From a candidate division TM6 bacterium GW2011_GWF2_30_66 (GTDB lineage Bacteria > Babelota > Babeliae > Babelales > Vermiphilaceae): a stretch of DNA of 64,000 bases. The notes beneath the pieces were generated by a model that was given only the letters and a program-made list of their open reading frames with translations, had not been told where the DNA came from and searched no databases. The stretch covers positions 5,312 through 69,311 of the forward strand of contig LBOA01000001.1 in NCBI GenBank assembly GCA_000989195.1. The letters are read 5' to 3'. The position numbers were made by a program, and so were the translations under genes. This document shows, piece after piece, positions 3,091-64,000 of this stretch (position 1 is the stretch's first letter; every line of letters begins with the position of its first letter).

Positions 3091-3151
3091 AAAATTTTTA
3101 ACGAGCTAAGCTTGTAAAATAATTTTACAAGCTTAGCTCGTTAAAAATTTT
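3091..3151. terminator. Long near-perfect palindrome (about 30-bp arms), probable strong hairpin terminator
   Basis: AAAATTTTTAACGAGCTAAGCTTGTAAAAT is followed by its reverse complement, flanked by A and T runs. Confidence 0.6.
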
Positions 3152-11145: not shown

Positions 11146-11793
11146 ATGAAATATACAAACAAACTTATTACACTGACAATGCTTTGCTCAGTATTTACAC
11201 AAACATCTTTTACTTGCGATAGATGCGAAGAACTAAAAGCTACTTACAAAAGCACAATCACAGATGAGCTTACTAAGTCCAGCGAAATAGTAAGTTGCTC
11301 ATGCTCACACCCAAAACCTGCAGCAAAGCCACCAGTAAAAGTTGAAGAAACTGTTGATTGCTCTTGCTCAAGACCACCAAGACCCCCAAAACCTGCAACA
11401 AAATCCGGCGAAATAGTAAGTTGCTCATGCTCACACCCAAAACCTGCAGCAAAACCACCAGTAAAAGCTGAAGAAACTGTTGATTGTTCTTGTTCAAAAC
11501 CACCAAAACCTACAAGACCTACTACAAAATCTGAAGAAGTTTGCCCATATGCAGAAGTTGAAGAAGTAATTACACAATTATCAGAAAAAATTATTTCTCT
11601 AAAAAAAATATTAGAATCTGCTCAAGCCGGAGAACAAGAAATAGTTGCAATGATAACTAAAGATTTAGATACAATAGCAGACACGCTAGAAGATATATCA
11701 AATAGCGAACTAACCCCAGAACAAGCAATGGAAGAACTTATCAAAATTAAAAAAATTATAGATGAGATAGAATATTATATAAATGCAAAATAA
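11146..11793 (+). CDS. Secreted CSCS/proline-repeat protein with an acidic helical C-terminus
   Basis: Signal peptide MKYTNKLITLTMLCSVFTQTSFT; four E-x-V-x-CSCS-x-P-(K/P)-P modules; GGGAGA RBS. Confidence 0.7.
   Translation: MKYTNKLITLTMLCSVFTQTSFTCDRCEELKATYKSTITDELTKSSEIVSCSCSHPKPAAKPPVKVEETVDCSCSRPPRPPKPATKSGEIVSCSCSHPKPAAKPPVKAEETVDCSCSKPPKPTRPTTKSEEVCPYAEVEEVITQLSEKIISLKKILESAQAGEQEIVAMITKDLDTIADTLEDISNSELTPEQAMEELIKIKKIIDEIEYYINAK
11278..11529 (+). repeat. Tandem 126-bp coding repeat x2 inside the CSCS protein gene
   Basis: 11278-11403 and 11404-11529 are near-identical. Each encodes SxEIVSCSCSHPKPAAKPPVKxEETVDCSCS(R/K)PP(R/K)P. Confidence 0.9.
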
Positions 11794-20392: not shown

Positions 20393-21862
20393 ATGACAGA
20401 AAAAAAATTATCTGGCCTAAAAATATTTGGTACAGATGGCATAAGAGCGAGATTCGGCGAATTCCCATTGGATAATGAAAGTATAATAAAATTGGGGCTG
20501 GCAATAGGCCAATGGGCACAAGAAAAATACGTAACCAATAATAACCAAACGCTAAATATACTAATTGGACACGATACAAGAATCTCATGCGATAGCATAA
20601 AACAAGGTCTTGCCGCAGGCCTGCTAACTCACAATGCAATTATACGCGATGCACAAGTAATACCAACGCCTGCAATAGTAAAATTTATAAATAATAAATG
20701 TGACTATTTTAATTTTGGAATAATAATTACGGCTTCGCACAACCCATACCAAGATAATGGCATAAAGATAGTAGATTCCAAAATAGGCAAACTAGACAAA
20801 AGCGACGAAGATAAAATCACAGAGTTTTTTTATAGCAACACCATTAACTCTAGATACTTGAAACTAAAAGATAGCATTAAAAATTCTGGCAATACGCAAC
20901 AAGAGCATGATACCAAATGCAAATGTTCATGTGAAAATATATCCCCCATTCGCCCTGAGTTAATCAAAGGGCCTAATGACCAATATAAAATCCTGGAAAC
21001 TCTACAAGAAGAATATGTAAAAACAATTACACGTTACTTCAAAAAAGACTTACTAAAAAATATAAAAATAGCACTAGATTGTGCAAATGGAGCTACTTAT
21101 AAAGTCGCACCAGAAATTTTCAAACAACTTGGTGCAGAAATTCTTTTAATATCTCATACTCCAGATGGAAAAAACATAAATCAAGATTGCGGCTCAACAC
21201 ATCCAGAAAATTTACAAAAATTCATGCTAAATAATAGTTGTGATATTGGCTTTGCTTTTGACGGCGATGGCGACAGAATAGCCGCGATTAGTAAAAATGG
21301 CCAAACAAAAGACGGTGACGACATATTATGCATACTTTCACAGCACCCTGAATATAAAAAACAAACTGCTATTGTCGGCACAATAATGAGTAATTATGGC
21401 CTTGAAATTTATTTAAATAAATATAATAAAGAATTAATACGTGCAAATGTTGGCGATAAAAACGTTTGTAAAGAAATGGTAAATAAAAATTTACTTGTAG
21501 GTGGCGAGCCTTCTGGACACATTGTACTAAGAGATTATCTATCTTGTGGCGATGGCATATTTGCAGCACTAAAAATAATTGAATCAATAAAACATGCAGA
21601 TAACTGGGATCTAAATACTTTTGAACGCACCCCTCAAATAACAATTAATATAAAAGTAAAAGAAAAAAAAGATCTAAACGAACCAAAATTTAAAGAAATA
21701 ATATTAAAATATAAAAATAAACTAAATAATGGTAGATTAATTGTCAGATATTCTGGAACTGAAAATTTATTAAGAATTATGACAGAAAGTAACGATGAAA
21801 ATTTAGCACGAGATATTTGCAATAATTTATCTAAAGAACTCGCACAAGAATTAAACAATTAA
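20393..21862 (+). CDS. glmM: Phosphoglucosamine mutase with a ~40-aa insertion
   Basis: FGTDGIRA, TASHNPYQDNGIK (active Ser loop), FDGDGDR, GEPSGH and RYSGTENLLRIM. Confidence 0.95.
   Translation: MTEKKLSGLKIFGTDGIRARFGEFPLDNESIIKLGLAIGQWAQEKYVTNNNQTLNILIGHDTRISCDSIKQGLAAGLLTHNAIIRDAQVIPTPAIVKFINNKCDYFNFGIIITASHNPYQDNGIKIVDSKIGKLDKSDEDKITEFFYSNTINSRYLKLKDSIKNSGNTQQEHDTKCKCSCENISPIRPELIKGPNDQYKILETLQEEYVKTITRYFKKDLLKNIKIALDCANGATYKVAPEIFKQLGAEILLISHTPDGKNINQDCGSTHPENLQKFMLNNSCDIGFAFDGDGDRIAAISKNGQTKDGDDILCILSQHPEYKKQTAIVGTIMSNYGLEIYLNKYNKELIRANVGDKNVCKEMVNKNLLVGGEPSGHIVLRDYLSCGDGIFAALKIIESIKHADNWDLNTFERTPQITINIKVKEKKDLNEPKFKEIILKYKNKLNNGRLIVRYSGTENLLRIMTESNDENLARDICNNLSKELAQELNN
20945..20973 (+). 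repeat. Palindromic-element terminus copy inside the glmM reading frame
   Basis: CCCATTCGCCCTGAGTTAATCAAAGGGCC matches the 29-nt consensus at 26/29 positions. It is translated as PIRPELIKG. Confidence 0.7.
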
Positions 21863-26652: not shown

Positions 26653-26751
26653 GTTCTCTTGCTATAAATTAAAATTTTTAAATTTTACAAATCGAAGCTA
26701 AATTTTTAAACACTCAAGATCAAAAAACCTAATAAAACGATATAACCCTCC

Positions 26752-27199
26752 CCCGTTCGCCCTGAGTTAAGCGAAGGGTCTAGAGACTTTGTCCCTAATT
26801 TTCGATTTATTTTTTTCATTAGACAATTCTTTCAACAAATCAATCTCATCATTAATCAAAGCTTCTTTCTTTTTTCTAGACCAACCCTTAATTTGCTGCT
26901 CTGCTTCTATAGCCTCACCTCTTGATCCAACTGTATCGCTAAAAACAACTTCAACAGGACGCCTTTTGTACGTATAACATGTTCTGATTAATCCCTGCTT
27001 GTGAGCACTAATCCTAGCTTAGATATTATCAGTGTAACCAGTATAATAAGAGCCGTCACTGCATCTTAAAATATAAACATAAAAATCAAGCATGCTAACT
27101 TGTACTTCCACGATAAAAATTATTTTCAAAATTTTACAAATACAAGCTAAATATTCTTGCAAAATCTCTGGACCCTTCGCTTAACTCAGGGCGAACGGG
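26752..27199 (-). mobile_element. 448-bp cassette: GIY-YIG gene bounded by perfect 29-bp terminal inverted repeats
   Basis: 26752-26780 CCCGTTCGCCCTGAGTTAAGCGAAGGGTC and 27171-27199 GACCCTTCGCTTAACTCAGGGCGAACGGG are exact reverse complements. Confidence 0.7.
26767..27093 (-). pseudogene. GIY-YIG (YhbQ/UPF0213, URI-domain) nuclease gene with one in-frame TAA
   Basis: MLDFYVYILRCSDGSYYTGYTDNI*ARISAHKQG...RRPVEVVFSDTVGSRGEAIEAEQQIKGWSRKKKEALIN...SRPFA*. The TAA at 27019-27021 sits where family members usually have Glu. The terminal stop lies inside the left inverted repeat. Confidence 0.8.
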
Positions 27200-42616: not shown

Positions 42617-42706
42617 ATAACTCTTCTTCAAAAAAAATTAATTAATAAAACAACTATCTTATATCTGAAATGTGCGCAATTTTGAGCCTGCTACCAGATC
42701 TGAACC

Positions 42707-42745
42707 GTCCTTCGTCAAGCTCGGGATGCTCGTAATCCTTCAACA
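42707..42745 (-). repeat. Diverged palindromic-element half-site about 30 nt downstream of tRNA-Thr(GGT)
   Basis: GTCCTTCGTCAAGCTCGGGATGCTCGTAATCCTTCAAC is nearly identical to the module at 43188-43225 and 43261-43298. It is related to the right arm at 55764-55792. Confidence 0.6.
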
Positions 42746-43152: not shown

Positions 43153-43334
43153 CTTCGCATATCATCCAAATAAACAAATATGGAGCTGTCCTTCGTCAAG
43201 CTCAGGATGCTCGGAATACCTTCAACTTCGCATATCATTCAAATAAACAAATATGGAGCTGTCCTTCGTCAAGCTCAGGATGCTCGGAATACCTTCAACT
43301 TCGCATATCATTCAAATAAACAAATATGGAGCTG
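43153..43334 (-). repeat. 73-bp tandem repeat, about 2.5 units, abutting and overlapping the 3' end of tRNA-Thr(TGT)
   Basis: Units 43153-43225 and 43226-43298 differ at one base. The partial third unit 43299-43334 runs into the tRNA. Each unit contains TGGAGCTG (the tRNA 3' end including CCA) plus an element half-site. Confidence 0.9.
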
Positions 43335-51829: not shown

Positions 51830-51858
51830 CCCGTTCGCCCTGAGTTAATCGAAGGGTC
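51830..51858 (+). repeat. Solo copy of the 29-nt element terminus
   Basis: CCCGTTCGCCCTGAGTTAATCGAAGGGTC matches the terminus at 26752-26780 at 28/29 positions. No inverted partner lies within the 250-bp intergenic region. Confidence 0.7.
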
Positions 51859-51966
51859 AAGATATAACCATAATTTTTTGCCATCCCTATAAGCAGTTAT
51901 AAACATTACTACCCCGGCACTCCCCTCTAAGCCCCATAGAAGCGAAGAAGTAATTGTACACTGCAA

Positions 51967-55642: not shown

Positions 55643-55792
55643 TACCCGTTCGCCCTGAGCCTAACGAAGGGTTGTAAATCATACCAAACTTTGATAAAAA
55701 TTTGTGCATGTCTTTGTAAAAAAATTAAATACTTAGCAAAAAAATGTTTGGCAGGAAAACATATCCTTCGACAAGCTCAGGACGAACGGGTA
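55643..55792. mobile_element. 150-bp ORF-less inverted-repeat element (MITE-like) between tdk and radA
   Basis: Left arm TACCCGTTCGCCCTGAGCCTAACGAAGGG, right arm TCCTTCGACAAGCTCAGGACGAACGGGTA. The outer 10 nt pair perfectly, the inner parts are diverged, and the core is AT-rich. Confidence 0.6.
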
Positions 55793-55891
55793 AGGGGAAT
55801 TCTAAAATTCTTAGACTCTAACTCATGAAATATAGATAAATATATTCGCAAAATTCTTAGCTACAGTTAACGCAAACTTAAGTTATTATAT

Positions 55892-57298: not shown

Positions 57299-57456
57299 CC
57301 CGTTCTACCTGAGTTAATCGAAGGGTCGCGAGATTAACATTTTTTCGCAACAATATTTTCGTAGAAAAAAACTTTAAAAAATTTATTTTTTTATTAAAAC
57401 AAAAATAAATTTTAAATAAAGTCTCAGAACCCTTCGCTTAACTCAGGGCGAACGGG
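57299..57456 (+). mobile_element. 158-bp ORF-less deletion derivative of the GIY-YIG cassette, between radA and the CPBP gene
   Basis: Arms are CCCGTTCTACCTGAGTTAATCGAAGGGTC and ACCCTTCGCTTAACTCAGGGCGAACGGG. The internal ends match both ends of 26752-27199, including a remnant of the last codons, KVSEPFA*. Confidence 0.65.
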
Positions 57457-61067: not shown

Positions 61068-61075
61068 AAATTAGA

Positions 61076-61189
61076 TCTGGCAGTATCTACCTTTCCAGCC
61101 CGTTACCAGGCAAGTATTCTCGACGCTGTAGACTTTACTACCGTATTCGGAATGGGAACGGGTGTTTCCCCACAGCTATACCCACCAGA
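61076..61189 (-). rRNA. rrf: 5S ribosomal RNA
   Basis: The reverse complement reads TCTGGTGGGTATAGCTGTGGGGAAACACCCGTTCCCATTCCGAATACGG...CTGCCAGA, with helix I pairing and the conserved CCGAAC/T loop. Boundaries are within a few nt. Confidence 0.9.
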
Positions 61190-61309
61190 AAGTTTCTAGA
61201 ATCAGCGATTCTTAGAATCAAGATTCAAATTTTTAAACTTGTGAAAAATATTTGTAGATCAAGTAGCGATTAAGCAAACCTTACGAACAATAAATAAGTA
61301 CTTAGTATG

Positions 61310-64000
<2,691 letters not shown>

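Follow-up and report, generated by a model that had tools for sequence, protein, structure and literature searches.

An inactivated GIY-YIG nuclease gene between inverted hairpin repeats in a candidate division TM6 bacterium has the architecture of the Ssn units

This analysis concerns a 64-kb stretch of the genome of candidate division TM6 bacterium GW2011_GWF2_30_66 (contig LBOA01000001.1, positions 5,312 to 69,311 of the forward strand), referred to below as the window, and within it a 448-nt cassette at 26752-27199, in which a gene for a small GIY-YIG nuclease lies between two inverted, structured repeats. The cassette has the NTS-ssnA-NTS architecture, generalised as SRM, that Chenal et al. 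described in 2025 for the Ssn nucleases (PMC11893778), though its hairpin falls outside the published definitions and its protein clade probably does so too. Since the architecture is the same, the cassette belongs to a known kind, and the claim of a first-pass annotation of this DNA, that the organisation matches no described class, does not stand. The mobile-cassette reading given in that annotation holds in part: the cassette belongs to a family of repeat-bounded nucleases whose units are gained and lost, while nuclease-driven mobility is unproven. It is probably a decayed hairpin-nuclease unit of Ssn-type architecture, a selfish element resembling insertion sequences and REPtrons that is in turnover, and not a fixed host gene.

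Organisation of the cassette

The 29-mers at 26752-26780 (plus strand) and 27171-27199 (minus strand) are exact reverse complements of each other, and the inverted repeat reaches 40 nt at 95% identity (26752-26791 and 27160-27199). The chance expectation for a 29-mer inverted match in the window is zero. The G+C content of the hairpins is 0.57-0.60, against ~0.31 for the window. They enclose one minus-strand frame, from an ATG at 27094-27092 to a TAA at 26769-26767, and this final TAA falls in the loop of the left (downstream) repeat, which yields the ending ...SRPFA*. The features of the cassette are as follows.

26752..26791, plus strand: gene-distal downstream terminal repeat, inverted copy of 27160-27199 (covariance-model match 26752-26786, 39 bits)
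26767..27094, minus strand: pseudogene of a single-domain GIY-YIG nuclease, 108 codons, one of them an internal stop (translation, PF01541, UPF0213 structures)
27019..27021, minus strand: premature in-frame TAA in place of a nearly invariant Glu (position 25)
27113..27155, minus strand: promoter-like AT-rich stretch within the cassette, upstream of the GIY-YIG start
27160..27199, minus strand: gene-proximal upstream terminal repeat (exact 29-mer plus 40-nt inverted repeat; covariance-model match 27165-27199, 38.9 bits, E=4.4e-9), made up of the 5' tail CCCGTTCG, the hairpin CCCT-GAG-TTAAG-CGA-AGGG and ~11 nt of subterminal repeat

The upstream repeat folds on the sense strand of the gene and the downstream repeat on its antisense strand, so that the tails of both face outward. 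The gene stands alone between rph and holA, with its own repeats, in a chromosomal intergenic setting. The HolA encoded there is 100% identical to a protein of this strain. No transposase or integrase open reading frame (ORF) of the DDE, HUH, serine or tyrosine type was found within the 448-nt unit. On the exact repeats, their high G+C, the stop codon supplied by the left repeat and the lack of a transposase or integrase, the first-pass annotation was right.

The stretch at 27113-27155 is a putative promoter of the GIY-YIG gene, judged from its sequence. A 43-nt AT-rich stretch at 26664-26706, upstream of holA, is a direct repeat of it with 77% identity, at a spacing that equals the length of the element. 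A motif related to this AT-rich stretch, AGCTTGTAAAAT, also occurs within a perfect 61-nt palindrome (3091-3151) between two plus-strand ORFs, and stretch and motif may represent a host promoter consensus.

The nuclease gene and its inactivation

The enclosed frame had been read as a GIY-YIG nuclease, and the profile search upholds this. With the internal stop repaired, the translation matches PF01541 with E=2.7e-17 and 63.3 bits (cutoff 22.6) as a single Pfam domain over residues 4-76. GIY-YIG is the sole Pfam family above its curated cutoff in this protein; T5orf172 scores under its own. Residues Y7, Y17, G19, H31 and E65 are invariant and R27 nearly so in 24 relatives, and all of them are present in the window copy. 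Among solved UPF0213 structures, 1zg2 (BH0048) matches with E=2.6e-14 and ~40% identity over 79 residues, and 1ywl (EF2693) with E=3e-12; these sequence matches already fix the predicted fold. The protein consists of the single domain and a short basic tail, and its Pfam matches include no NUMOD, zinc finger or helix-turn-helix DNA-binding module. Intact relatives are 95-110 aa long, the closest being 80-85% identical to the window copy.

The window copy is inactivated. Its in-frame TAA replaces a Glu that is nearly invariant in the relatives, as had been noticed from the sequence, and three independent assemblies of the strain (L089, L090, L091) all carry it. A sequencing error is thereby excluded: the gene is truly dead, and its pseudogene state is fixed in the strain. 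The same genome encodes an intact GIY-YIG protein (P0007, on L005) that is 71% identical to the window copy. Its gene lies between the same kind of inverted repeats, with the loop TTTAT instead of TTAAG, and adjoins a peptidase M17 gene. The cassette is thus accompanied, in its own genome, by a copy with an intact ORF between paired termini.

The wider family comprises 1,114 clusters at 50% identity (E<=1e-10), and the clade is found in Dehalococcoidia, Burkholderiales, Campylobacterota, Bacteroidota, Nitrospinota, Dependentiae and others. Many of the gene calls run on into the repeats and so acquire tails such as VRPELVEG and PSTSSGRT. Such hairpin-derived peptides occur in 35 of 150 cluster representatives, and the hairpins thus explain common spurious N- and C-terminal extensions in gene calls.

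Structure of the hairpin

Covariation was analysed in 92 aligned hairpin copies. Read 5' to 3', the conserved structure consists of a tail yCCGTTCG (with variants CCGCTCA and CTGTCA), a stem R-Y-C-C-T / A-G-G-R-Y, an invariant GAG...CGA and a loop of mostly 5 nt; the GAG...CGA is able to form tandem G.A/A.G pairs plus a G-C pair. Pair 14-32 covaries (C-G 51, U-A 32, U-G 6), and the conserved fold outscores every shuffled and slid control. At two variable stem pairs G.T outnumbers A.C by 70 to 18, an excess which indicates that folding takes place on one strand. The 5' tail is conserved, and is unpaired in the terminal-repeat type; in about half of the copies it pairs with the 3' flank to give a long solo hairpin. 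The boundary of the unit lies directly 5' of CCCGTTCG.

For the 29-mer of the window, thermodynamics prefers another fold (CC-G-TTCGC / GCGAA-GG). This was rejected as the conserved structure, being 87% paired across the family but without covariation; it is possible as an alternative conformer.

Some hairpins (L093 152-210; L134 3685-3760; L001 2577-2630) carry ~30 nt inserted in the loop or stem, several of them with TAGCTTT(T)AGC, or are fused head to head with another hairpin type. Such forms suggest that these very small repeats undergo nested insertion or expansion.

Association of gene and hairpin across phyla

A profile made from 24 relatives was used to take 80 loci from the GTDB species-representative genome collection. 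They span Dehalococcoidia, Burkholderiales, Sulfuricurvum, Flavobacteriales, Sphingomonadales, Nitrospinota, Dependentiae, Kuenenia, cyanobacteria and others. Adjacency was taken as <=200 nt upstream or <=250 nt downstream of the gene, and by this measure 65 of the 80 loci (81%) have an adjacent match to the hairpin model at E<=1e-3. The canonical two-sided layout, with the upstream copy in sense orientation, the downstream copy antisense and the tails outward, is found at 35 (44%). The nearest upstream copy is on the plus strand in 43 loci and on the minus strand in 10; for the nearest downstream copy the minus strand (39 loci) prevails over the plus strand (17). There are 3.8 hairpins per kb next to the gene and 0.17 per kb in the outer flanks, a 22-fold difference. 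Close relatives and copies from the same genome (L001-L008) have the identical layout, plus upstream and minus downstream, and so has an annotated plasmid of a Sphingomonas isolate, whose hairpin shows the compensatory stem change GGCT/AGCC. With the exception of one Sphingomonas plasmid, the phage and plasmid collections gave only distant GIY-YIG matches. Scanning metagenomes for the TM6-type hairpin gave 81 stretches, with 29-66% G+C; a GIY-YIG match covers most of the protein in five of these and an N-terminal fragment only in three more. No hairpin copy was found in E. coli genomes.

The orientations bear on one alternative, that the hairpins act in transcripts, as terminators, stabilisers or a cis-regulator of the GIY-YIG mRNA, and are tied to the gene through regulation. 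As RNA, too, the hairpin is stable, and the upstream copy has the sense orientation. The downstream copy is antisense, however; solo copies downstream of genes are not biased towards the sense strand (7 on the same strand, 15 on the opposite one), most copies lie far from any GIY-YIG gene, and Ssn proteins do not act on RNA (PMC11893778). Searches of the window and 17 loci at gathering and permissive thresholds matched no Rfam family. We regard a function at the RNA level as very improbable.

Likeness to the Ssn units

Ssn proteins are single-domain GIY-YIG proteins of ~94 aa (cd10448; SsnA of N. meningitidis is NMV_0044/NMB0047) whose genes are flanked by hairpins, named NTS in Neisseria and generalised as SRM. 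Binding requires the hairpin to be single-stranded DNA and is confined to one strand; cleavage falls a few nt 5' of the conserved flank, and the enzymes act on neither duplex DNA nor RNA. Their authors compared the unit to an insertion sequence or a REP/RAYT pair, and left open the role of Ssn outside Neisseria and the mobility of the repeat-gene-repeat unit (PMC11893778). Literature on GIY-YIG with MITE (miniature inverted-repeat transposable element), REP (repetitive extragenic palindromic), RAYT (REP-associated tyrosine transposase) or TIR (terminal inverted repeat), on COG2827, YhbQ and UPF0213, and on the hairpin and the peptides derived from it, yielded nothing relevant. The match is the Ssn paper, found in the GIY-YIG literature since 2019.

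The window clade shares with Ssn a single-domain protein of ~95-105 residues without auxiliary domain, a gene placed between inverted, oriented hairpins that have a conserved 5' flank and outward tails, and numerous gene-less repeat copies per genome; in both, only one strand of the repeat seems functional. The flanking frequencies are also similar, since Ssn homologue loci have a repeat at 71% and repeats on both sides at 42% (PMC11893778), against 81% and 44% here. Ssn is enriched in symbionts (PMC11893778), which fits the Dependentiae host. The hairpins themselves differ: the tail is CCGTTCG in the window clade and CGTCA in Ssn/NTS, and the YCCT stem with tandem G.A and a 5-nt loop takes the place of TTCCCGCG with a GMAV loop.

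As proxies for SsnA we used five ORFs from viral contigs that are bordered by exact NTS repeats. One of these loci (L231) reads NTS on the plus strand, a 104-codon ORF and NTS on the minus strand, the same outward-tail layout as in the window clade. An all-against-all comparison of the proteins gave three clusters, namely the window clade (100-150 bits internally), the NTS-flanked Ssn proteins (100-160 bits internally) and the UPF0213 structures. The hairpin model of the window clade had no match beside the NTS-flanked genes or yazA.

The Ssn cleavage mechanism agrees with the flanking frequencies, with the strand bias and with the position of the unit boundary immediately 5' of the tail. The unit is a gene for a ~100-residue single-domain GIY-YIG protein, with its own putative promoter, between two inverted structured repeats. 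In each repeat the tail CCGTTCG lies 5' of a stem of 5-6 bp, which is followed by tandem G.A/A.G pairs, a closing G-C pair and a 5-nt loop; further copies are scattered through the genome as solo hairpins and 150-nt inverted pairs. By analogy with Ssn, the intact protein would bind the hairpin only as single-stranded DNA, on the strand of the 5' tail, and would cut a few nt 5' of the tail, a position that here coincides with the outer edge of the unit on both strands. The most likely activity of the intact paralogues, to judge from these characterised enzymes, is to cleave single-stranded DNA strand-specifically on the 5' side of the hairpin, and we infer that the nuclease spreads or maintains the hairpins.

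Gain, loss and turnover

The rph-holA interval measures 617 nt in this strain and is filled by the cassette in all contigs. In a relative with 79% HolA identity it measures 212 nt and holds a lone, expanded hairpin-like remnant (~60 nt) at the point of the upstream end of the cassette, with the 14-nt flank GCAAATATCTnTTT conserved. In another relative, with 57% HolA identity, 3 nt separate rph from holA. Filled, remnant and empty states in different relatives point to gain and loss, and presence/absence polymorphism at the orthologous site is what the mobile-cassette reading had called for. A second cassette follows the P0007 cassette in L007 and L008 and is missing from L005/L120 and L006; over the 2386 nt before the breakpoint L007 and L120 share 99.9% identity. 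In L001 the whole unit is tandemly duplicated. That L001 and L003/L004 represent different contexts was rejected: their flanks are common to all, so that we see one locus with a tandem duplication. In different genomes the GIY-YIG gene occupies unrelated loci. A fixed pseudogene, variable cassettes and unrelated loci are marks of turnover and not of a fixed host gene.

Two truncated cassettes were also observed. One (L098 257-460) has the left repeat followed by only the first ~17-24 codons of the gene; the other (L134 3481-3582) is a 34-codon N-terminal fragment ~100 nt from an insertion-bearing hairpin. Both come from the same aquifer sample and add to the decayed copies. Another repeat, GATAATGTCATCAACTTAAG..., borders the outer edges of cassettes in relatives and forms 47-nt tandem arrays upstream (L001 3480-3720; L007 1510-1566 and 2393-2447; L101 3252-3488). 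The window has no copy of this repeat, which is thus not part of the present unit.

A cycle of invasion, decay and loss, which fits the pseudogene, would also be expected from homing-type spread. The nuclease would then cut gene-less hairpin pairs, repair from a gene-bearing copy via 26-40 nt of hairpin homology would copy the gene in, and the gene would parasitise repeats that were there before it. GIY-YIG enzymes are classic homing endonucleases (PMC1564403), the gene is always placed between two inverted hairpins, gene-less inverted pairs exist, and the orthologous site in the relative has a hairpin without the gene. This protein, however, has no separate DNA-binding domain, and its characterised relatives cut single-stranded DNA only, not duplex (PMC11893778). 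In addition, the spacers of the gene-less pairs have nothing in common with the interior of the cassette, and homology arms of 30-40 nt are short for recombination. We therefore give homing only a slim chance against the preferred reading of a repeat-bounded selfish unit.

Other hairpin copies in the window

At least nine further termini had been claimed for the window, and the covariance model finds nine besides the cassette pair, one of them weak. The 11 copies are the cassette pair, two gene-less inverted pairs, two solo hairpins and three divergent hairpins near two tRNA-Thr genes. A degenerate pattern search of the window gave 10 matches, against 0.01 expected. The copies outside the cassette are listed below.

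20945..20979, plus strand: solo hairpin in frame within glmM (..SPIRPELIKG..), in a variable linker (covariance model)
42700..42734, minus strand: weak divergent hairpin ~40 nt 3' of tRNA-Thr(ggt) (15.2 bits, E=0.031)
43181..43288, minus strand: two divergent hairpins with the tail CCGAGCA, in a 73-nt tandem repeat that begins in the 3' end of tRNA-Thr(tgt) (27.9 bits each)
51830..51864, plus strand: solo intergenic hairpin with the loop TTAAT (42.1 bits)
55645..55794: 150-nt inverted pair with the loops CCTAA and CTTGT, the second being the pan-phylum consensus loop (covariance model)
57299..57456: 158-nt inverted pair without ORF, MITE/REPIN-like

Two of these copies had been described as miniature elements that share internal sequence with the cassette. 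The two inverted pairs do exist, but what they have in common with it is limited to ~36-40 nt at each end in the pair at 57299 and to the hairpin core in the pair at 55645. The hairpin in glmM (20393-21862) lies in a variable linker of ~34-45 residues between domains 1 and 2. A degenerate trace of it (IRNELTEES) is seen in a GlmM of 83% identity, and none in the 77%-identical or more distant relatives aligned.

A rival to the selfish reading is a domesticated host system, as proposed for SsnA and NTS of Neisseria, in which hairpins and nuclease would trim incoming or exposed single-stranded DNA and so shape recombination, the hairpins having spread otherwise and the gene not being mobile. The 150-nt inverted pairs of the window are fixed among the sampled strains, and the glmM hairpin is tolerated in frame and has left its trace in the relative. 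In N. meningitidis, transforming DNA is restricted by SsnA when it contains NTS, and the authors of that work suggest domestication (PMC11893778). Three observations speak against it. The window copy has become fixed in the strain as a pseudogene, and elsewhere the genome has a paralogue of 71% identity whose hairpin loop is different; close relatives differ in the number and presence of cassettes; and the gene is found at unrelated loci. Domestication is in our judgement unlikely, though a stronger candidate than homing.

At 43153-43298, directly 3' of tRNA-Thr(tgt), a 73-nt unit is repeated ~2.5 times; it consists of the last 7 nt of the tRNA, a 28-nt trailer and a divergent hairpin. This array may be due either to insertion at tRNA ends or to plain tandem duplication.

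Elsewhere in the window, a 126-nt tandem repeat with copies 89% identical (11272-11523) lies within the ORF at 11146-11793, which encodes a Cys/Pro/Lys-rich repeat protein with a signal peptide (SCSCSHPKPAAKPPVK...). The window end (61075-64000, minus strand) carries a 5S rRNA gene and a partial 23S rRNA gene. GC skew is negative over nearly the whole window, which places it on one replichore.

Assessment of the preferred reading

Several observations weigh against a selfish unit of Ssn type, and they fall under two heads. The first is kinship with Ssn. The published SRM pattern HGTCWYN(0-2)YYVSBRHN(0-5)WNVSBRGN(0-2)RNCYNB, which does match NTS, has no match in the window, in 184 hairpins or beside the gene at any of the 80 loci. 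The window clade scores 35-60 bits (~31% identity) with the NTS-flanked proxy proteins and higher, 55-74 bits, with UPF0213. Because of the failure of the SRM pattern and the low identity, the Ssn mechanism is transferred to the window clade by analogy only. The second is mobility. Neither target-site duplications nor a shared target motif were seen at any junction examined (window copies, L001, L005). The inverted pairs at 55645-55794 and 57299-57456 show no presence/absence variation among nine contigs of near-identical strains. Metagenome assemblies can be chimeric near repeats, which weakens the comparison of L005 with L007. No strand-transfer chemistry is known for a GIY-YIG hydrolase. 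That the nuclease drives autonomous mobility, as proposed in the first-pass annotation, is thus not borne out.

None of the three outcomes that the first-pass annotation had named as fatal to the mobile-cassette reading was observed. The signs of turnover that do bear on mobility are the fixed pseudogene beside an intact paralogue, the filled, remnant and empty sites, the tandem duplications and the in-frame insertion in an essential gene. A more far-reaching interpretation, which we put forward tentatively and hold to be doubtful, is that the CCGTTCG-YCCT-GAG-N5-CGA-AGGR hairpin and the UPF0213-like GIY-YIG clade make up a second selfish hairpin-nuclease system of many phyla. In such a system a hydrolytic single-strand nuclease, together with host replication or repair, would move the 30-nt hairpin, the 150-nt doublets and the 450-nt unit. 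If this is true, it would be a route of transposition without a transposase of any known class, and it could account for the very widespread 'VRPELVEG / PSTSSGRT / LRQAQD' peptides in gene calls.

Ssn was described only in 2025, and the window locus extends this architecture to another protein clade and another hairpin. The clade also points to further enzyme-hairpin pairs for single-stranded DNA tools.

Comparison with other known systems

A classical insertion sequence or transposon differs from the cassette in having a transposase ORF, and target-site duplications were not seen here. Closer in organisation are the REPtrons (RAYT/TnpA-REP). Like these, the cassette has a small nuclease gene between two inverted hairpins, with solo hairpins and inverted doublets dispersed in the genome, and a short conserved tag 5' of the hairpin foot; single-strand recognition is likely here as well, by analogy. 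The enzyme, however, is a hydrolytic GIY-YIG nuclease and not an HUH Y1 transposase with a covalent intermediate, and the tag is CCGTTCG, not GTAG or CGTC. RAYT genes are typically single-copy, whereas the gene of the window clade is multi-copy and decaying.

Among named proteins, the best-scoring relatives are the UPF0213 or prokaryotic Slx1-like proteins (BH0048 of B. halodurans, 1zg2; EF2693 of E. faecalis, 1ywl; YazA of B. subtilis; YhbQ of E. coli), which supply the closest solved structures and share the minimal single-domain form. A survey of the superfamily from 2006 regarded the prokaryotic Slx1-like group as housekeeping genes that are passed on vertically (PMC1564403). In Bacillota yazA lies in a tight trmNF-yazA-rsmI operon with overlapping ORFs and has no hairpins, unlike the gene described here. 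GIY-YIG homing endonucleases (I-TevI, Seg) have in common with the window clade the catalytic fold, a selfish lifestyle and the cycle of invasion, decay and loss. In contrast to them, the clade has no DNA-binding or NUMOD domain, does not reside in an intron or phage and is bounded by inverted hairpins. Whereas each homing endonuclease has one cognate allele, the clade is dispersed at unrelated loci.

The scattering of short palindromes across a reduced symbiont genome, at times in frame in essential genes such as glmM here, recalls the Rickettsia palindromic elements and MITEs such as the Correia elements. The hairpins described here differ from these in that the unit is only ~30-35 nt long and that a cognate nuclease gene with the same termini can be identified.

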